Under the pieces are notes generated by a model. It worked only from the letters and a program-made list of their open reading frames with translations. It was not told the DNA's origin and ran no database searches. Of a DNA stretch of 64,000 bases, positions 38,312 through 49,107 are shown in pieces. A program made the position numbers and the translations under genes. Numbering within the stretch: the stretch's first letter is position 1; each line of letters starts with the position of its first letter. Location of the stretch: the sequence record NC_047749.1; one strand, written 5' to 3'. Origin of the DNA: Escherichia phage DT571/2.

Positions 38312-40615
38312 TTATTTCGCTGCCTTCAGCGCGGCTATCTCTGCCTTCAAATCCTCGATTTGCTTATTGAGATACTGCACACAACCCATCAAATCCATAA
38401 CGATCGGGTTTACATCCACCGACGGCCTGTCGCGGGTCTTACCACCGATAATAGCGTTAGTCTCTGGGTCCACCTCCACATCGTACGTCTCTTCTCGATG
38501 TTTGATGTATTGAGGTGCAATCGCTTCAGCCTCCTCGGCAATTATGCCGAAGCGGACGCGCTCCTGCACATCGTCCTTATACACGTAGTTCACCATGCGC
38601 ATTTGTTCAATACGTGCAACCGCTTCTGTAACGTCTGCATTGACAATATCTTTCTTAAAGTCCCGCCCCGATGTGCCTTGCAAGGCAAGAACACCACCAG
38701 ATGAAGGCCAGTTGATTGTAATGCCAGTGCCGTTTCCCTTCTCAAAATATTTATAGATCTGGTTACTATTGATATTAACCGAATCCCACATCGTGCGGAA
38801 ATTACCAGCCGGGACTGAATCTTTTGCGTTGTGTAGAACGAAAGACTTCACCGGACCGTCGGTAGTCGGGCGAATGGTTATATCACGGGCCCACACTACT
38901 CCGCCTGTTCCCGCTCCGGGGATCTCCACGACGGTATCTCGGTACGCGCCCGACGCGTCATATGATTGCAACTTAAAATTGCCCGAAGCGTCGTTAATCC
39001 CCATACGCCAGCGTACTTTATCGGCGGAATCCGCCCAACATACACCGTCAAAATCGGAGTTCACCGAGTTCACAACTATACTATTCGGTATAGTTAGTTT
39101 ACCTGTTTCGTCAAAATCCAGATTCGCGCTTCTTTGTGTGGTACTGTTCGTTACGGAAATACGAGCAGAATAGTTACCGCCGATATCGGCACGGGCACAG
39201 AAACTAGCTTCAGCCTCATTGGCGCCACTAATCTTGTACAATGAGAATATGTTACCACCTTGAGCAATTGTGCCGTCAGCTGGACGTGTCGCATCACCAT
39301 TGATCACACTCCAAGACGTATTCGCCGCCACGAACCCGCCTGACGCTCGAATAACCCACACACCCATGAAGTTATTTGGACGCAACTCCGTTACGGTCCG
39401 ACCATAGATCGCGCTGACCCTCGAGGCGTCCAGGTTAATGATGCCGTAGGAGACCGCGCCGTTACTAACAGTTAGGTTGCTTGGCGTCCGATATTGCGAA
39501 TCCGCGCCACCAGACCCATGGAACGCGCCACTTTCACCGTTGATAATACTTGCGGACCCGCCGCCGTGTAATTCGACGCGGCCTGTGATGTTAGGTGCTC
39601 CTGATTCGTAGATATACCCATCGTTGCCACTTTGCCCGCCGTCCCCCCGGCAGAACAAGCCGAATATTGACCCAGGCTGAACACCATTACGGTCTGGCAC
39701 TCGGAAGGTCGTTGTGCCGTCACCAGTAGAATACTTGCCGCGCTGATTTGGGTTAGCCAGCCAGGTAGCGTCACTAATTGGCGATAGCATTTGCGCATAC
39801 GCCCAGAGTTCGGGCCAGTCAGCACGATTCAACAACTGACCATCACTCACCACCTCGTACGGCTGAATGTATGCGCGACTATCCCGCAGGTGAAAGTCAC
39901 CTACCCCATAGTTCATAACGCCATTCATGGTAGGTCCAACTGTACCAGTGTTAATCTTATTCTCTACCCAACGTTTGGTTACAGCATCGTAGTCCCCCAC
40001 AGGGTCCCCAGCAAGAGGGGTGGACCCTTGTGGTCTTACAACGTCCCATAAAGCTTCTCTATTATTTACCCCGGTACCCCCTTGTTCAACCGGGAGTGCT
40101 AACCACTCATTCTCTGTATCACTATAAACTCCCCAAGTACCATTATTTTGAATAGTTAATCTAGAATTCTTATCACCACTGTAGATTATGGTTTCTGTTT
40201 CGGACTCCTGACTAAATCTATCGAGTTCCAGTGCGGTTTTAGCCCCCTCTAGTGTAGAAGAACCAGTACCACCTTGAGCAATCGTAATAGCCTTAGTAAG
40301 CGCATTTAATTCTGTAATATCATTATTAGCACCTTTAGCAGCTTTACTATCTATGGTGATATTCATACTACCAAGAGCAGTATTGATATTCCCAATAGCC
40401 TCTACATTGTTCTGAATGGAACTATCAATACCAGTTAAACGAGTATTTAATTCTTCTTTATCTATAGTGTAGTTAGAGATTTGTAGGTATTTAGAAGTTA
40501 GTGCAACAGCACCAGCTTCTCCATCAACAGAGAAAACGCCTGCAACCGCAGCATCTCTGTTAACTACAACGTATGGCGCCATTGCGCCGGATTTAGGCAT
40601 TAAATTACGTGACAT
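38312..40615 (-). CDS. ltfB: L-shaped tail fibre protein, second copy (LtfB-like) with C-terminal intramolecular chaperone domain
   Basis: 767 aa; internal ~120-aa module near-identical to upstream fibre; C-terminal ...LKAEIAALKAAK chaperone-like end; AAGGAAA RBS. Confidence 0.8.
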   Translation of the reverse strand: MSRNLMPKSGAMAPYVVVNRDAAVAGVFSVDGEAGAVALTSKYLQISNYTIDKEELNTRLTGIDSSIQNNVEAIGNINTALGSMNITIDSKAAKGANNDITELNALTKAITIAQGGTGSSTLEGAKTALELDRFSQESETETIIYSGDKNSRLTIQNNGTWGVYSDTENEWLALPVEQGGTGVNNREALWDVVRPQGSTPLAGDPVGDYDAVTKRWVENKINTGTVGPTMNGVMNYGVGDFHLRDSRAYIQPYEVVSDGQLLNRADWPELWAYAQMLSPISDATWLANPNQRGKYSTGDGTTTFRVPDRNGVQPGSIFGLFCRGDGGQSGNDGYIYESGAPNITGRVELHGGGSASIINGESGAFHGSGGADSQYRTPSNLTVSNGAVSYGIINLDASRVSAIYGRTVTELRPNNFMGVWVIRASGGFVAANTSWSVINGDATRPADGTIAQGGNIFSLYKISGANEAEASFCARADIGGNYSARISVTNSTTQRSANLDFDETGKLTIPNSIVVNSVNSDFDGVCWADSADKVRWRMGINDASGNFKLQSYDASGAYRDTVVEIPGAGTGGVVWARDITIRPTTDGPVKSFVLHNAKDSVPAGNFRTMWDSVNINSNQIYKYFEKGNGTGITINWPSSGGVLALQGTSGRDFKKDIVNADVTEAVARIEQMRMVNYVYKDDVQERVRFGIIAEEAEAIAPQYIKHREETYDVEVDPETNAIIGGKTRDRPSVDVNPIVMDLMGCVQYLNKQIEDLKAEIAALKAAK

Positions 40616-40654: not shown

Positions 40655-43600
40655 TTATTTAGCTTCGAGTTCAGTAATCTTGGCTTCCAGAGCCTCAACC
40701 TTATCCATCAAAGCGAGGATAGCTTCGTGGTGGAGGGCTGCTGCAACACCGTAGGTGTCTACACCTTTAACGTCCGGGACTACCTCACCATCACGTAGAT
40801 TCATGGAACCTGCATTGAATATAGCATCCGGGAAGCGGTTCTCCACATCCTGAGCGATGAACCCGTAGTTCCTCTTAGAGTTATCCTGCTTGACACGCCA
40901 CGATACACCCTTGATGGTACGCATAGCGCCGAGAGGGTCCGGGATGCGTACAACATCTTCCTTGATGCGCTCGTCAGAAGTAGTGCTCCACCCACCCGGA
41001 CATACCGCATTACCAGCCTGCATGAACTGGAAATACCTCGGAGTACTACCACTCACACTGGTCATTATGGTCATATCGCCATTACGTTCGGAGTATACTC
41101 GCCCGTACATGGCACCACTTGGTGATACGAAGTCCAAAAATCCGGAGGTGTAACTACCACTACCTGTGATACGCACAATATTGCCTTTGGCAATCATATT
41201 GCCCGGTGTGACTAAGTCCCCGCTACTATTAAAGTCAAAGCTCCGAGTAACACCCAGAGTAGAGTTGTACACGGATATACGGGCAGCATACGTACCACCT
41301 ATCGTGCCTACCATACGGAAATCTGCGGAACCTTCCAGCTGACCACCAACACGGTACTCACTAGTAACACGACCGCCAGTAACAGACGTTGTTGCAGGTG
41401 GCAGTGTGGCATCACCGTTAATCACAGACCACGACGTATTCGCAGCAACAAATCCGCCCGATGCACGAATCACCCAAACGCCTACGAATGAGTTAGGTCT
41501 TACCTCGGAAGCACGCCCATAAGCCGCATTGACTCTAGATGCCCTGAATGTGTATGTGTTATATCTTGCGTTACTCCCCTCTGCGTTGCTAAGACTAATT
41601 GCAGAAGTTCCGTTATTAGAAGATGCAAATGCACCTGACGGAGCTCCTGCGAGATAACTATAAGAAGTAAAATCCCCTGAGATATCAGGGAGGCCGTTTT
41701 CAAGAATACCGCCATAATTGCCGCCCGCATCACCACGCCCGAACAACCCCTTGATTGAACCTGTTTGAGTACCGTTACGGTCTGGCACGCGGAAAGTAGT
41801 AGAGCCATCACCTGTTGAATACTGGTGTCTGTTCCAAGGGTCAGCAAGCCAATCAGCATCAGAAATAGGGGAAAGCATTTGAGCATAAGCCCACAACTCG
41901 GGCCAGTCAGCCCTATTAAGAAGTTGTCCATCAGAAACGACTTCATATGGTTGAATATACGCACGACTATCACGAAGGTGGAAATCACCTACACCATAGT
42001 TCATGACACCATTCATTGTTGGCCCTACTGTACCGGTGTTAATCTTATTCTCTACCCAACGCTTAGTAACAGCATCGTAGTCGCCAACAGGATCACCAGC
42101 CAGCGGCGTTGAACCAACGGGTCGCACGTTAAGCCATGCGGCAGCACGGTCTGCCAAATCCGAAAGGTTATTAGCTTTTAATAAGTAATCAGTATCTGAC
42201 TGAGTTTTAGCGTCTGCTAAAGCAGAATCAACCTCCATCTTAGTATACGTGGTAGCAATATCAGCCTTATCTGCTAAAGCAGAATCAACCTCCATCTTAG
42301 TATACGTGGTAGCAATATCAGCCTTATCTGCTAAAGCAGAATCAACCTCCGTAGTACTATATAACTCGAGGGCTATACGGGCGTCTTCTTTAGTTGTTGC
42401 ACCAGTACCGCCTTGATTAATACTAACAGTACCTTGTAGTGAGGTATCAATTTCAACGTTACCAGTTATATCATCTGGAGAGATACCATTAACTGTCACA
42501 ACATAAGGAATCTGATCTTTAATAACGCCAGCATCTTCTTCGCCTTTAGTTGGTGCACGGAATGCCTGTCCTTGCATCATATCTGGTAGACGGAAGGTTG
42601 TAGAGCCATCACCCGTAGAGAAGTAAAGAGACGCACCGGCTTGCCATTCAGCTTCTGGTACAGAAGGAATTAAGCCAGCCTCAATAGCCTCCCAAGTATC
42701 TGGATAGTCTGCACGAAGAACTTCACGACCATCAGCAGGAAGAACACCAGGGTAGCCAACACCTGAATCTTTATCATAAGGGAACCAAGTAACTTCACCC
42801 AGCCATAAAGAGGGGTTACCACCAGGAAGGGTGATCTGTACGTTACCCCCATCATCTGCACGAACGTTATTAACAGAAACTAACTTTTGCTCTGTTTCTA
42901 CTAACTCTAATACTGGAGTCTCAGCAGTTCCAGCTACTTTGTACCACCCATATTTTGAGTTAGTTTGGTTCCAGACTAGAACCTTTTCGTCTAGCACACG
43001 GTTTACAACATCGGCATCAGCTTCTGCTTTAGTCTTATAAACTTTGATAAAACCAGAAATATCTACTTTATCAAGTTTACTATCAACAATCTGAGTTGCA
43101 CGATCTGCCTCAGCTTTAGCACGATCTGCCTCAGTAGTAGCATCGATAGCTTTATCACCGGCTTCAGTAGCAGAACCAGCAGCATTAGTTTCAGAAATCT
43201 TAGCGTTTAGTTCTGATTGCCTTGCAGCAGCAGCATGTTCGCCAGCAGTGGTAGCAGCAGCATCAGCTCCATCTTTAGCTGTTTCAGCACCAGTCTTAGC
43301 AGCTTCTGCGGCTATTTGAGCTTGTTGCGCAGCTGTTTTAGCTTGTTCAGCTAGTAAACGACTTTGTTCAGCATTCTGCGCTGCCAATTCTGCAGAGTCT
43401 CTAAATCCCTCTGATTCTTGCGCAGAAGCTGCAGAATTATCTGCACTGCTTTGGGCTAAACCCGCCTGTCTTTCTGACTCAGTAGCAGAGGCAGCAGATT
43501 GAGTTGCTGAAGCTTCGGAAGCACCAGCATGAATACCCGCCTGAATCTCTGAATCTTTAGCGTTATTTTCAGAGTCCTTAGCTGCTATTTCAGAACCTCT

Positions 43601-43774
43601 AGCAGCAGCAGCGGATCCTGCAGAGGCCTCTACAGCAGCAGTTAATTCACCAGCAGTAATAGAACTAATAGAATTACCTAAAACTACTGTATATTTAGGA
43701 TACTTACTAGCAGTAGTTGTAGTGTCATCTATGTTCAGAATCTGCTGTACAATAATTTTAGTTTTAAGTGCCAT
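40655..43774 (-). CDS. ltfA: L-shaped tail fibre protein (pb1/LtfA-like) with C-terminal intramolecular chaperone domain
   Basis: N-terminus [32 protein letters not shown] typical of T5 pb1; Ala/Ser-rich coiled region; 57-bp tandem repeat; C-terminal chaperone-like domain. Confidence 0.85.
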   Translation of the reverse strand: MALKTKIIVQQILNIDDTTTTASKYPKYTVVLGNSISSITAGELTAAVEASAGSAAAARGSEIAAKDSENNAKDSEIQAGIHAGASEASATQSAASATESERQAGLAQSSADNSAASAQESEGFRDSAELAAQNAEQSRLLAEQAKTAAQQAQIAAEAAKTGAETAKDGADAAATTAGEHAAAARQSELNAKISETNAAGSATEAGDKAIDATTEADRAKAEADRATQIVDSKLDKVDISGFIKVYKTKAEADADVVNRVLDEKVLVWNQTNSKYGWYKVAGTAETPVLELVETEQKLVSVNNVRADDGGNVQITLPGGNPSLWLGEVTWFPYDKDSGVGYPGVLPADGREVLRADYPDTWEAIEAGLIPSVPEAEWQAGASLYFSTGDGSTTFRLPDMMQGQAFRAPTKGEEDAGVIKDQIPYVVTVNGISPDDITGNVEIDTSLQGTVSINQGGTGATTKEDARIALELYSTTEVDSALADKADIATTYTKMEVDSALADKADIATTYTKMEVDSALADAKTQSDTDYLLKANNLSDLADRAAAWLNVRPVGSTPLAGDPVGDYDAVTKRWVENKINTGTVGPTMNGVMNYGVGDFHLRDSRAYIQPYEVVSDGQLLNRADWPELWAYAQMLSPISDADWLADPWNRHQYSTGDGSTTFRVPDRNGTQTGSIKGLFGRGDAGGNYGGILENGLPDISGDFTSYSYLAGAPSGAFASSNNGTSAISLSNAEGSNARYNTYTFRASRVNAAYGRASEVRPNSFVGVWVIRASGGFVAANTSWSVINGDATLPPATTSVTGGRVTSEYRVGGQLEGSADFRMVGTIGGTYAARISVYNSTLGVTRSFDFNSSGDLVTPGNMIAKGNIVRITGSGSYTSGFLDFVSPSGAMYGRVYSERNGDMTIMTSVSGSTPRYFQFMQAGNAVCPGGWSTTSDERIKEDVVRIPDPLGAMRTIKGVSWRVKQDNSKRNYGFIAQDVENRFPDAIFNAGSMNLRDGEVVPDVKGVDTYGVAAALHHEAILALMDKVEALEAKITELEAK
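42212..42349. repeat. Perfect 57-bp tandem repeat (~2.4 copies) inside ltfA, encoding EVDSALADKADIATTYTKM repeats
   Basis: Identical nucleotide units and identical 19-aa peptide units in the translated ORF. Confidence 0.85.
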
Positions 43775-44196
43775 TATTGAGTTACTCCATCGCTGATGTA
43801 TACTTTACCTTCCATAATACGGAAAGAACTGACTTCAGAGCCAATTACATCACGAGTCATTAGGATATCATAATAACCCGCAAAGCGTTGTCTAGGGTTA
43901 TACTTATCACGTTCTTTAGATGCTTTTTCACCAATATTAGTAACGTCTGCAACGGAAAGACTAATTGCAGCAGCACCTTGAGCAGCATCAATAATACTAG
44001 TAGTAAAAGATGCCAAAGTTTCCGCGTTCTCGTCTAAGCTAGACTTAATAGTTCCACGAAGTGAATAACCTGCTAGATTAACAGGTGTTTCAGAAGGAGG
44101 GTATACACTATCATCAACATCCATAAATTGCATGATAAGACCATAAGGCACTTTCTCATCAACAACAATATCAATTACTCTATTTTCAGTACTCAT
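43774..44196 (-). CDS. Tail collar protein (T5 p132-like)
   Basis: 140 aa, same size and position as T5 p132 between pb4 and ltf. Confidence 0.7.
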
Positions 44197-44200
44197 TATT

Positions 44201-46273
44201 TTACCTTATATGAATATATCCGTTTACTAGATCTATTTTCATCTTATATTGAGCTTCAGGATTTCCTGATAGTGCGGCAGCCCTATCATATATAGTATTA
44301 ACACCTATTTGTGATAGAAAAGCATTCCCAGCTACTATTTTATCCGCTGTAATAGTACCATTAACTATCATATTACCATGAAGTACCATAGCTGGGTTAA
44401 CCCAACCAGAACCGTTCCATTGTCTAGTAAATGCAGTTTGAGGTGAATTACTATTAAATTCAGTTAATACATCATATTTAACTGGGGGAGAACCGAAGTT
44501 ACTTTGAAAGAAAGAATTAGCTTGTCCATCGTCCCAACCACTTAAACCTGCTATACCTACAGAATACATCCCAGGACCACGTTGTCCATCATGCCCTATA
44601 GTACCTTCAGTACCGCTCCACTGAACTACATCCGACCAACTAGTACCCTCTAATAACCTATTAGTAACTGGATCAAGTGTACCCGTAGTCGCATAGATAT
44701 TTTGTGTCATATCTGTGCGGTTAGGTGGAGTTTTTGACCAACCCGGAGGCGGATAATCCTGCTCTAGTGGTTTAGCAGGTAGAGATGTTGCTAACTTATA
44801 AACAAATACTGTTTGCTTACCTTGCATACCAGTACCCAGATCTACATCGCCATTAGGAGTTCCAATAACTACTCCACTAGAAATACGTAGCACATCACCA
44901 TCATAACGAATCCACTGTGTGGCATTACCAATGTCTAATTTAGCTTTGGCAGAGGTATTATCCATACCCATCCAAATACCTGAGTTATTATCCCCCCAAG
45001 ATTTACCCTGAGTGTAAATTGCCGGATTATCCTCACCAGATAAGTTAGTCATGATAAAGTTCGCAGCATTAATATCTCTAGTAATTACTTTACCATCAAC
45101 GTTAACAACACGGTTTATAGGGTCAAAAGAAATGGGTGCTTTTCCTTCTTCATCTAGCAGACCAATGTTAATAGCACCAGTAGCTGCGTCGATTAAGAAT
45201 GTCTGTTTCCAGATTTCTCCCTCTTTCATGCTGCCCTTAATAAAGGCATAATTAACATCAATACCCGTCTCATTGACAAAACTGTTGTCTAGAGGAGTAT
45301 CTTCATTCAATATAAATGTTGCAGGAGCTGATTCTGTTATATCTTGCCTATTTGGTCCCCAGGCAATTGATGATACCTTAAAAGTATGCTCAACTTTCCA
45401 TGGGAATGATATAATCGTTGCAGCCCTAGCAGCCCCAACGTTTATCTTTTGAGCTTTAGCCCAACCAGTCCTAGCATATTCTTCAGAGTTTATATAAGTA
45501 ACCAGAAATTCACGGACGTTAGCACCCGCCCCACGTTCCCAGTCCCATTCTATTCTAACATCATAACGTTCCTTACCATCTGCAATTCGTGCAGCTTTAA
45601 AGGCAATGTTAGTAGGTGCAGTAGGCGGTACGAAATTATAAGCTACAGTGAAAACGCTAGGATATTCATAATAACCAGATGAGTCAACTGTAACACCATC
45701 TGGCATCGTAACTTGGCCAGATATTCTGATCTTATAGTCACCAACAGGAACACCACCAAATTTGATAGTAGGTCCCAGTGCGCCTATATAATATTTAACC
45801 CATTCACTATCTTCTGATGCAGTACTTTTTAATTCAATAGTGCAGTAACTAGCTTCACCAGTTGTCTCTACAACAACTATGGGAGCACCAACACCAACGT
45901 CAACGGGTTCTGATTCAGATCTTGCTGCAACAATTATTGGCTTTTCCTTTGTTCTAAAGTTAGTTTCATTAGAGAGGTTGATACCAATCTTAGCTTCCAG
46001 TAACTCTGAGTCAATAATTGAGTCATAGAAAGCCCCCTGAATCTCATAGGAGGTAGAGGGGGTTAGATTATTAATCATTACGAAGAAAGTATCTACACCG
46101 GTGTAATCACGTCTATCTATACTTTCTTCTACTTTTAACCAAAAAGATCTACCAATAACATCATAATCAGTATAAATGGAGTGCTGGACATAAGCCAAAG
46201 TATATCCAGTCATTATACTATTTAAGACCATTTTGGCTGGTGCATTATTTGAAATCATTAAATGGATGCCCAC
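44201..46273 (-). CDS. Central straight fibre protein (T5 pb4-like)
   Basis: 690 aa, position between pb3 and collar as in T5. Confidence 0.75.
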
Positions 46274-49107
46274 TCCACAGACTGTTCTCCATCATCCCCT
46301 TCAGCTCTAATACGAAAATACAATTTTCTATTTATACCTAGAGCATCACTGTTCTGGAGAGCAAAGTCTGCCTTATTATATGTTAATAAATAGTCATAAG
46401 TATACTGATTTTCAATACGTACACTTCTTAACATCCTATTTTGTGGATCGTGTATTTCAAGGGTATAAAATATACTCTCTATTATATCTTCTTCAGGTAT
46501 TCTATCCCAGGCTAGTTTCACATCTGGGCCAACAAACTCAGTTACATCTCCAGAGGCAGTATTAGTTACCCTAAAATTAGATACTACACTAAGGTTTTTA
46601 GCGGAGTTAAGTTCTATGGACAGAGTCACCGGAGAACTTCTTCTACCGTTAATATCTACTGCCCTTATCTCAAATATAGCCAGACCTGCTGGTTCCCCAA
46701 TTATTTCTTGGATCATACGTTCGTTAGGGTTGGTCTCTAACTGTTGTACTATGTAAGGTTCGGCATGGCCTGAGTGCACAATAGAGTAGTAAACTACATT
46801 ATTGGTTAGACTCGGAAGCCAGGATAACTCACCATTTTTACCTATAGAGCCTACTAAACCGCCAGGAGTAGGAGTATATTTAAAGTCTCTAGGAGGAAGG
46901 ACATTATTACTAATATCGGGGATATCATTACCGCTATTATCAACCTGCCCAGAGTTGATGAATACATCTTCTCCATACTCCTGTAAGGTAACATTTATCT
47001 TACCTTCTCTAGAGTTTTCCACTTCGTCTACTAGGAAGTACTTCCTATCCCACCCATAACGGTCATATGTGAATGCAATAGCATCGTTAGGTTCAATACC
47101 AATGAATTGATACGGCAATGAGAAAGAAAGTGTTCTTGAGTATCTGGATTTCTTAAGTTCTCTATCAGCAAAACTTCTTGCAGTATAGTAATTAGTAATA
47201 TTAGCAAAAGATAGTTGTAATTTTTTATCTAGGTTCTTGTCCTGTTCCTTATAATTGGAGTTATAGAATGTAATGGAATTAGTTTTCCAGCTAAGGGCTG
47301 GATCTACTATAGATGCTTGAACTGAGTTGAATTTATTTCTACCAGTAGTATCTGATAGCTCCAAATCGCCATAAGTATCTAGAAAATTAATCTCTAACGG
47401 AGTATTAGAGTATTTTTCTACAGTAACCCTATACTGGCCAGATAAGTTGTTAATAGCCCCACCATAGGACTCTAATAAACCTTGCACATTTTTAAATACT
47501 GATTCAGATGTATCCAGAATAGTATTCATTTGTACTATTTGTCTATTTTCCGCTAATGGATTAGTCCACCCAACGTATCTCCAATATGGCTGCCAAGATA
47601 CCTGATAGGATTCATCTATAATATCTAAAATAGCTGCTTCCTGTATTAATTGCTGAAGGGGGAACTGATCAATGGTAATATTAGCGCCGTATCTATCAGA
47701 GGTTAAGTAATCAAGTGTTTGCCAAATACCATTTAAACTAGTACTATTAGCAGTTACTCTACCATCAGAATGATAGACTTTTACTTTTTTACCTTGAATT
47801 TCAGCACTAACTTCTGGAATCTCAGTTCTGTTTTCATTAATAGTAAAACGCACTACGGCATAAGCAGTATCTAGTAGCTTATATCTAGCATCCCAGTATT
47901 CAGGCCCATTGCCATTCATATTTTGAAGATAGAACCCGCGGTTTCTAGCGATGTTCACTAGCACATCAGAGGCTGTTTGATTAGACTTTCCGTGGTAAGT
48001 CCAGATCCTTATATCACCATTTCCATCATTATACCTATACTCTTGACCATGAACGGATGGACTACTAGAGGAAATTCCAGATGCTATCCGCTGCATGGTA
48101 TCTCCTACTATTTTTTTAGTACCGAAGCAGGTTCTAGCGGAGCTATCATTAGCGTCTACACAGATCATAGGATTATCACCGAAGGAGAAATCAAGAAAAC
48201 CATCAATCTCCCCCTCAGCAAAGGCGTATACGACATAAACTATGTTGGGATTGTGTAGTTCTGTATCAGCAAAAATAGGTATCCCCGGTATTTTCTGTAC
48301 ACCATAAACTACTGGTATATATTTAGCAGCAAGGTTAAAATCTATATCTACTTCCTTAGTAACAGTTTCATAGTATTTTTTAAGGCTGTAGCTTCTAGAT
48401 AAACCAAATAATTTTTTCTTTGATTTTAGCTTGTATCTTTCTTCCTGTACTTGGTACTTTGCCAGTATAGATATACTTTTATTAGCATGAAAGAACCCAT
48501 AGTCTTCTTGGTACTCAGGTCTTTTAGCACCGTTAGATGGTACTAGCTGTCCAGCTACAACTTCAAGCCCCCTATGAGAAGCATCATCAGTATATCTGCC
48601 ATTAACCCTATCAAAGTCATAGAATTGGTTAGAACAATTCCAGGTAATTGTAGAAGTTCCTACTCCAGAGGTACTAATGTTATCTTTAATGCCTCCTCCA
48701 GTAATCCTTCCCCTAAAGTACAGTAAAGGACCATTTGTATCTGGGTCTACTGGCAGAATAGAACCATCTTCAGTAATAATTGCTTGATGAATTGATACGG
48801 TTCTATCTAAGAAGGACACGCCATTTTGTACTAGTTTTAGCACTTCATCCTGTGCTGTGCCAGTAATGGTAAAAGATAGACTGCCAATAGATAAATCTCT
48901 GTTTTGTTTGTGTGAGCTAATAGACTTAACTTTACCTGCCTGGTATAGGATGCCATTATATATTACATCCCTAAAATAATCAGTTAAATAAATAAAAGCA
49001 GTACTAGTACCAGTAGAGCCAGGTAACTCTAGGGAAATTAGACTAGCAGTTTTTATTCTGCTATTATTTTTTAAGTAGTTTCTAGCACTATCTAGTATTT
49101 GTTTCAT
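46258..49107 (-). CDS. Baseplate hub protein (T5 pb3-like)
   Basis: 949 aa, identical length to T5 pb3; follows Dit gene. Confidence 0.8.
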   Translation of the reverse strand: MKQILDSARNYLKNNSRIKTASLISLELPGSTGTSTAFIYLTDYFRDVIYNGILYQAGKVKSISSHKQNRDLSIGSLSFTITGTAQDEVLKLVQNGVSFLDRTVSIHQAIITEDGSILPVDPDTNGPLLYFRGRITGGGIKDNISTSGVGTSTITWNCSNQFYDFDRVNGRYTDDASHRGLEVVAGQLVPSNGAKRPEYQEDYGFFHANKSISILAKYQVQEERYKLKSKKKLFGLSRSYSLKKYYETVTKEVDIDFNLAAKYIPVVYGVQKIPGIPIFADTELHNPNIVYVVYAFAEGEIDGFLDFSFGDNPMICVDANDSSARTCFGTKKIVGDTMQRIASGISSSSPSVHGQEYRYNDGNGDIRIWTYHGKSNQTASDVLVNIARNRGFYLQNMNGNGPEYWDARYKLLDTAYAVVRFTINENRTEIPEVSAEIQGKKVKVYHSDGRVTANSTSLNGIWQTLDYLTSDRYGANITIDQFPLQQLIQEAAILDIIDESYQVSWQPYWRYVGWTNPLAENRQIVQMNTILDTSESVFKNVQGLLESYGGAINNLSGQYRVTVEKYSNTPLEINFLDTYGDLELSDTTGRNKFNSVQASIVDPALSWKTNSITFYNSNYKEQDKNLDKKLQLSFANITNYYTARSFADRELKKSRYSRTLSFSLPYQFIGIEPNDAIAFTYDRYGWDRKYFLVDEVENSREGKINVTLQEYGEDVFINSGQVDNSGNDIPDISNNVLPPRDFKYTPTPGGLVGSIGKNGELSWLPSLTNNVVYYSIVHSGHAEPYIVQQLETNPNERMIQEIIGEPAGLAIFEIRAVDINGRRSSPVTLSIELNSAKNLSVVSNFRVTNTASGDVTEFVGPDVKLAWDRIPEEDIIESIFYTLEIHDPQNRMLRSVRIENQYTYDYLLTYNKADFALQNSDALGINRKLYFRIRAEGDDGEQSVEWASI

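Follow-up and report, generated by a model that had tools for sequence, protein, structure and literature searches.

The block of 19-residue repeats in LtfA, the lateral (L-shaped) tail fibre protein A of Escherichia phage DT571/2, is probably an old array that shows slippage-type instability, is homogenised around 2.4 copies and serves as a stiff spacer. The repeat, together with the gain of one copy in the laboratory, was already published in 2016 by Golomidova et al. (Viruses 8:26, PMC4728585), and the feature is thus confirmed here and not new. We analysed a 64,000-nt stretch of the genome (NC_047749.1), referred to as the window, to which all coordinates apply. Tandem Repeats Finder (TRF) reported a period of 57 bp at 42213-42350, with 2.4 copies, 100% matches, no indels and a score of 276, and a direct-repeat search recovered two identical 57-nt copies (42213-42269 and 42270-42326). 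The 57-bp tandem repeat is real and lies well above chance: at an offset of 57 the perfect self-match run extends over 81 nt, the longest in the 64-kb window (the runner-up has 27 nt), while the maximum runs in 20 mononucleotide shuffles reached 11-14 nt.

Translation placed the 138-nt array in frame within ltfA on the minus strand (gene nt 1425-1562, LtfA aa 476-521). Read in codon phase, unit 1 (42293-42349, LtfA aa 476-494) and unit 2 (42236-42292, aa 495-513) each encode EVDSALADKADIATTYTKM, and the partial unit 3 (42212-42235, aa 514-521) encodes EVDSALAD. An initial annotation, made by reading the DNA letters, had located the repeat inside ltfA and given its 19-residue unit; both descriptions hold, since the array falls within a minus-strand ORF of 1039 aa (40655-43774) and the unit occurs twice on translation, followed by EVDSALAD. 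TRF likewise bore out its period and copy number, 57 bp and 2.4 perfectly matching copies. The boundaries that it gave, 42212-42349, follow the codon phase of the 138 nt. The stretch whose nucleotides are identical lies one base higher, at 42213-42350, since the final Asp codon reads GAC and not GAT.

The locus is the ltfA gene of the branched lateral tail fibres of the DT57C/DT571/2 type, in a T5-like phage. The ORF shares 94.7% identity with annotated DT57C ltfA over the first 2369 nt and 99.9% identity with the DT571/2 ltfAB record KU159289 over nt 1-1562, and its product matches PDB chain 8hqz_d (DT57C LtfA) over the full length (E = 0); an exact-sequence look-up of the window LtfA returned no record. 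Five minus-strand ORFs (46258-49107, 44201-46273, 43774-44196, 40655-43774 and 38312-40615) follow the order of the DT57C annotation, with ltfC-ltfA-ltfB downstream of the genes for the pb3 and pb4 homologues, as in DT57C. Directly upstream of ltfA lies ltfC (43774-44196, minus strand, 140 aa), the gene of the collar protein that anchors LtfA, assigned as an ORF with the position and length of DT57C ltfC. The second fibre protein, LtfB (38312-40615, minus strand, 767 aa), was assigned from its ORF, from synteny with DT57C and from a Peptidase_S74 domain at aa 650-703, and is thought to branch from LtfA. LtfA itself carries a C-terminal Peptidase_S74 intramolecular chaperone domain (Pfam PF13884; aa 933-984, 40823-40978, minus strand; E = 1e-10, 42.2 bits against a cut-off of 22).

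Upstream of the array in the protein, phmmer identified a region related to phiEco32 gp14 and SU10 gp12 (LtfA aa 223-471; 42362-43108, minus strand); the SU10 long tail fibre proximal protein (7z47_D) matches aa 232-453 with E = 2.5e-46. This region stops a few residues short of the 57-bp repeat. Golomidova et al. proposed that the part of LtfA homologous to phiEco32 gp14 is the docking (branch) domain for LtfB, and they placed the repeat block directly after this proposed LtfB contact (PMC4728585). They described a "block of tandemly repeated 19 a.a. motifs" in LtfA, wrote the unit as VDSALADKADIATTYTKME, counted two full copies and one incomplete copy in wild-type DT571/2, and reported one extra copy in the selected mutant DT571/2-ABF (section 3.8 and Fig. 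4 legend).

The extra copy can be read directly in the mutant record. Base-by-base comparison of KU159289 (DT571/2-ABF) with the window showed 3.4 identical units in place of 2.4, and the gain leaves an ORF of 1143 aa intact, the period of 57 bp being equal to 19 codons; this copy-number change, the sole one observed, comes from a laboratory-selected mutant. Once one 57-bp unit is removed, KU159289 corresponds to nt 1-1781 of the window ltfA, with one mismatch, followed by the final 1605 nt of the window ltfB without any, and the window therefore matches wild-type DT571/2. The deletion implied in ABF measures 2088 bp, which is exactly the spacing of a 278-nt direct repeat found by repeat search on the minus strand of both fibre genes (79% identity between copies): the ltfA copy (41838-42115) starts 98 nt downstream of the tandem repeat, and the ltfB copy occupies 39750-40027. 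The deletion crossover maps to 41994-42004, ~210 nt from the 57-bp array. As the ABF gain stays in frame, it does not represent the on/off frameshift switching of a contingency, or phase-variable, locus.

Tandem repeats are unstable through slipped-strand mispairing or unequal exchange. In DT571/2, the 81 bp of perfect homology at a 57-bp offset would allow replication to slip or recombination to proceed unequally, and either slipped-strand mispairing or unequal exchange would add or remove 19 codons with the reading frame kept. The step from 2.4 to 3.4 copies in DT571/2-ABF would be one such product. Repeated homogenisation around a favoured 2.4-copy state would then keep the units identical. 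We picture the array as a stiff rod that keeps the LtfB docking domain (aa 223-471) apart from the part of LtfA that binds the receptor distally, so that copy number would set the spacing of the branched fibre.

The authors of the 2016 study speculated that the duplication in ABF compensates for the fusion, and they found that DT530(1), in which ltfA and ltfB are similarly fused but the extra unit is lacking, possesses a severely compromised fibre (PMC4728585). This contrast between ABF and DT530(1), drawn from the literature, is the sole functional hint for a spacer role. The extra unit could instead be a by-product of the recombination that deleted 2088 bp some 210 nt away, and not a change that arose independently and was selected for compensation. 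The short distance between the crossover and the array agrees with such an origin, as does the occurrence of the extra unit and the deletion together among the ~200 plaques screened (PMC4728585); however, the poorly functional fibre of DT530(1) fits selection for the extra unit, and we consider a by-product unlikely. By-product formation and selection are compatible with each other. The ltfB-opal parent stock may already have been the source of the extra unit.

Comparison with relatives suggests that the array is older than its perfect identity implies. DT57C and DT530(1) have 2.5 copies at 95% identity by TRF, with three differences between units and with KTE and KVE junctions, and TrudiGerster (Bas27, isolated in Basel) has 2.4 copies that are 100% identical. 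In Yersinia phage phiR2-01 the 2.4-copy layout is recognisable at the protein level in strongly diverged units (EVDTALTGKANTDNVYSKS, EVDTALVEKADLDSVYSKS and EVDTALSQAKTQ), copies so diverged that TRF no longer picks up the array. The TrudiGerster and DT571/2 units differ by two synonymous substitutions: in all three copies codon 1 is GAA in TrudiGerster and GAG in DT571/2, and in both full copies an Ala codon is GCC in TrudiGerster and GCT in DT571/2. Within each of these two genomes there are zero differences between copies, whereas substitutions between the genomes occupy five of five copy-sites; the copies are more alike within than between genomes, the pattern of concerted evolution. These substitutions are common to every copy, and it is very unlikely that each copy acquired the same ones in parallel; homogenisation or re-duplication must therefore have taken place after DT571/2 and TrudiGerster diverged.

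A single recent duplication in the DT571/2 lineage, with no earlier history, would account for copies that are 100% identical at synonymous sites as well as elsewhere. We nevertheless find it improbable, more so than the by-product origin of the ABF unit, because the same 2.4-copy layout recurs with three differences in DT57C/DT530, in TrudiGerster, and in diverged form in phiR2-01, and because the two differences between TrudiGerster and DT571/2 that all copies have in common call for homogenisation or for separate duplications after the split. The array is thus old, and its perfect identity is best explained by homogenisation, either by loss and regain of units or by gene conversion; gene conversion and independent re-duplication from a 1.4-copy state would fit the data equally.

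Between DT57C and DT571/2, the identity of the repeat (97.8%) is close to that of its flanks (97.7% and 97.3%), and their common ancestor therefore probably carried a perfect repeat. Its codon 19 was probably ATG, as in TrudiGerster. We also considered whether the ATG of DT571/2 arose by recombination between the two DT57C codons, ACG and GTG, through contraction and then re-expansion. We rejected this origin because TrudiGerster has ATG in both units; the simpler reading is that ATG is the ancestral codon, from which each DT57C codon differs by one point change.

All natural genomes with the 19-residue unit (n = 5, a small sample) have about 2.4 copies, and copy-number polymorphism of the unit, which would mark a contingency locus, was not seen among them. 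These results qualify what the initial annotation had drawn from the repeat. The copies are identical, as it noted, but the recent duplication that it took this identity to imply is not supported as stated, the layout being common to DT57C, TrudiGerster and phiR2-01. Its view of the array as a site prone to copy-number change is substantiated, for in-frame change, by the 3.4 versus 2.4 copies of KU159289, which are also published (PMC4728585). The further suggestion that fibre length could vary holds for the in-frame gain of one unit in the laboratory mutant, but no natural isolate with the 19-residue unit departs from 2.4 copies. Additional carriers of the unit were not found in an exact 20-mer scan of IMG/VR or in a 26-mer scan of GTDB genomes, and an exact-word scan of metagenomes gave two single matches, both translating to unrelated sequence. 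Large protein database searches gave only proteins of up to ~650 aa, mostly LtfB-like or fragments, with full-length LtfA orthologues outside the survey.

The agreement among relatives also bears on the copy number of the window itself. A collapsed assembly, with a true wild-type count of 3.4 or some other number of copies, could be suspected from the Sanger-era ABF record of the same phage, which has 3.4. The array is only 138 bp long, however, and so below ordinary read length; DT57C, DT530(1), TrudiGerster and phiR2-01, which were independently sequenced, all have 2.4 to 2.5 copies; and the authors give two full copies and one incomplete copy for the wild type, with the third as a feature of the mutant (PMC4728585). 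Taken together, the short array, the four agreeing genomes and the authors' wild-type count make assembly collapse very unlikely. That the nucleotide identity is kept by a functional DNA or mRNA element (a structure or a binding site, for example) and not by homogenisation is scarcely credible: synonymous sites are identical between copies, as such an element would have it, and nothing else speaks positively for one, whereas the DT571/2 and TrudiGerster units differ at synonymous sites, other relatives carry unrelated repeats of 39-90 bp at the site, the predicted DNA fold of the 138 nt is modest (-11.9 kcal/mol) and no plus-strand ORF of at least 60 aa crosses the array.

We compared this site, defined as the segment between GGTGATTKE...ALE and KTQxDTxY..NLSDLADRAAAWLNVRP, across the LtfA genes of T5-like phages. 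Repeats occupy the same position as in DT571/2 in three Salmonella phages, namely SP3 (period 75 bp, 2.3 copies, 92% identity), Kenya-K36 (39 bp, 3.3 copies, 95%) and Kenya-K38 (67 bp, 2.0 copies, 100%), and a period of 90 bp with 2.3 copies is found in Escherichia phages mar003J3 (96%) and vB_EcoS-26175 (26175III; 91%) and in Citrobacter phage YZU-L1 (92%). These arrays of 2.0 to 3.3 copies, at 91-100% nucleotide identity, are built from units that differ from that of DT571/2, with lengths of 25, 13 and 30 aa. In the 90-bp type the GGTG motif is itself part of the repeat, and the KAD and YTK motifs of the DT571/2 unit are absent.

The length of the linker varies little despite the different units. 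Measured from the first GGTG to NLSDL, it amounts to 81 aa in four phages with the 19-residue unit, to 100 aa in ABF, and to 86-88 aa in three other repeat types that keep the reading frame open. This pattern fits a duplication-prone linker whose length would be under stabilising selection, in a comparison of few lineages in which residues are counted across different unit structures and are not a physical length. Tentatively, and with rather less confidence than we place in the account of the DT571/2 array itself, the LtfA segment just distal to the LtfB branch point might be a general tandem-duplication "accordion" of T5-like phages. Lineages would independently have built different units (39, 57, 67, 75 and 90 bp), which loss and regain would keep young; selection would hold the linker at ~81-88 residues, and a change of one unit would give fast compensation when the fibre architecture changes, as in ABF.

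A structural role for the unit is suggested by its resemblance to alpha/beta coiled coils, for which Hartmann et al. (2016, eLife, PMC4786415) derived the tandem beta-layer consensus LxxKADKxxVYTKxE. The module has been solved in HylP1, the tail-fibre hyaluronidase of a Streptococcus prophage (PDB 2C3F), with the register abc-beta-efg-beta-efghijk, and also occurs in Neisseria NadA (PMC4786415). The LtfA segment LADKADIATTYTKME agrees with eight of the ten specified consensus positions over 15 residues without gaps, departing at position 7 (K to I) and position 10 (V to T). The beta-layer register of 3+3+3+3+7 adds up to exactly 19, the length of the unit, and the 19-residue period of LtfA equals the distance that separates the beta-layer LAT from VYT in HylP1. 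Aligned without gaps, LtfA TKMEVDSALADKADIATTYTKMEVDSAL and HylP1 TKVETAQKLQQKADKETVYTKAESKQEL are identical at 13 of 28 positions, in a segment that spans three solved beta-layers. HylP and NadA are trimeric fibres, and LtfA is trimeric at its N-terminus (PMC10713586). LtfA differs in that copies of the module follow one another head to tail, joined by a helical connector of only seven residues.

Profile searches gave a coherent set of matches, with individual scores that are modest. We built a unit profile from twelve double units, taken from LtfA relatives and from metagenomic proteins with three to five such units, and searched the PDB with it. Besides the self-match to DT57C LtfA (8hqz_d), it matched the GCN4 fusions 7o9v, 7oaa and 7oac (E = 1e-4 to 3e-3) and, with modest scores, NadA (4cjd, E = 0.05) and HylP (2dp5, 3eka, 2yvv and 2c3f, E = 0.3). 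Direct phmmer comparison of the repeat region with the PDB retrieved only DT57C LtfA and, weakly, 9zd7 gp92, which matched the NLSDL motif. Literature searches for YTKTEVD-type strings and for the published context of the GCN4 fusion 7O9V / OMM_04225 gave no useful result. Single-sequence AlphaFold2 prediction of LtfA aa 411-591 as a monomer yielded a featureless helix (pLDDT 37) and was uninformative. Experimental structures cover other parts of these fibres: the SU10 gp12 cryo-EM model comprises residues 1-90 only, and in trimeric DT57C LtfA the N-terminus, the only part modelled in 8hqz, is a three-helix coiled coil by cryo-EM (PMC10713586).

From these similarities we infer a trimeric alpha/beta coiled coil in which each unit makes up a single period, its register being abc(LAD)-beta(KAD)-efg(IAT)-beta(TYT)-efghijk(KMEVDSA). 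The array would probably form a short rigid coiled-coil spacer that closely follows the proposed docking domain for LtfB and has two beta-layers in each unit. Each unit would contribute ~2.5-3 nm, as estimated from the standard helical rise.

The feature described here is the one reported in PMC4728585, in the same phage, with the same unit, the same two full copies and one incomplete copy, and the same extra copy in ABF. That study does not treat the nucleotide identity between copies, homogenisation in relatives, the other repeat types at the site or a structural assignment, and the additions made here, namely the evidence for homogenisation, the recurrent repeats at one site with conserved linker length and the beta-layer assignment, are minor.

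As a discovery the repeat therefore counts for little, since both it and its expansion have been in print since 2016, from those who characterised the phage. It offers a modest worked example of an in-frame, recombination-prone spacer beside the branch point of a two-protein receptor-binding fibre, in which a functional, engineered-like fusion (ABF) comes with one extra unit, while DT530(1), similarly fused but lacking that unit, is crippled. If the idea of spacer length is true, copy number would be a simple design parameter for re-targeting T5-like phages by swaps or fusions of fibre modules, and the recurrent young repeats at one site would illustrate the natural tuning of fibre geometry.

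High-identity tandem repeats with other periods occupy the ltfA linker (the LtfA stretch from the first GGTG to NLSDL) of other T5-like phages, at a position equivalent to that of the 57-bp repeat of DT571/2. The period is 75 bp in Salmonella phage SP3 (L006, 3284-3459), 39 bp in Kenya-K36 (L038, 788-914) and 90 bp in mar003J3, 26175III and YZU-L1 (L039-L041, 684-887). LtfA proteins carrying these repeats have linkers of 86-88 aa, compared with 81 aa in DT571/2.

At the equivalent site of Salmonella phage Kenya-K38 (OQ291035.1; L037, 754-889) lies a perfect tandem duplication of 67 bp (2.0 copies). Because this period is not a multiple of three, the ltfA reading frame is broken, and OQ291035.1 therefore splits the gene into two annotated CDS: a “long tail fiber” of 502 aa and a second ORF downstream of it. 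The split gene reflects either a sequencing error or a fibre that is truncated in nature. Kenya-K45 also has a 67-bp duplication at this site.

Longer direct repeats link ltfA to ltfB. Stretches of 278 nt (79% identity; window 39750-40027 and 41838-42115) and 94 nt (74% identity; 39642-39735 and 41730-41823) recur in the two genes at a spacing of 2088 bp, and these long repeats are the substrate of the deletion in DT571/2-ABF, the selected mutant with an ltfA-ltfB fusion. At the nucleotide level, the crossover maps to window 41994-42004 (ltfA nt 1771-1781). The published fusion boundary, “aa 1-663 / 288-767” (PMC4728585), does not give the crossover; it shows how far amino-acid identity extends, in the numbering of the mutant. 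The mutant also differs at ltfA codon 275 (window 42951), where TAT is replaced by TTT in KU159289. The resulting Y275F substitution, which the 2016 paper on the mutant (PMC4728585) does not mention, falls within the phiEco32 gp14-like domain of LtfA, the proposed LtfB docking domain, and could represent a second compensatory change or variation in the stock.

In the alanine-rich, N-terminal coiled-coil part of ltfA, an imperfect 21-bp (seven-codon) tandem repeat (window 43094-43147; 2.5 copies, 78%) is heptad periodicity visible at the DNA level. Following the 57-bp repeat, the NLSDLADRAAAWLNV motif (LtfA aa 535-550; window about 42125-42172) weakly matches (E = 0.008) the “NLSDL..A..NL” motifs repeated in the solved short tail fibre gp92 (PDB 9zd7), and appears to be another recurring fibre module. 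The LtfA-type 19-residue module itself is present in 3-5 tandem copies, with the consensus TTYTKTEVDSALxxKANQx, in the short metagenomic proteins P0008, P0010, P0013, P0014, P0016 and P0017, two of which carry labels assigning them to a Candidatus Fonsibacter MAG. Beyond T5-like phages, the module is widespread and its copy number varies.
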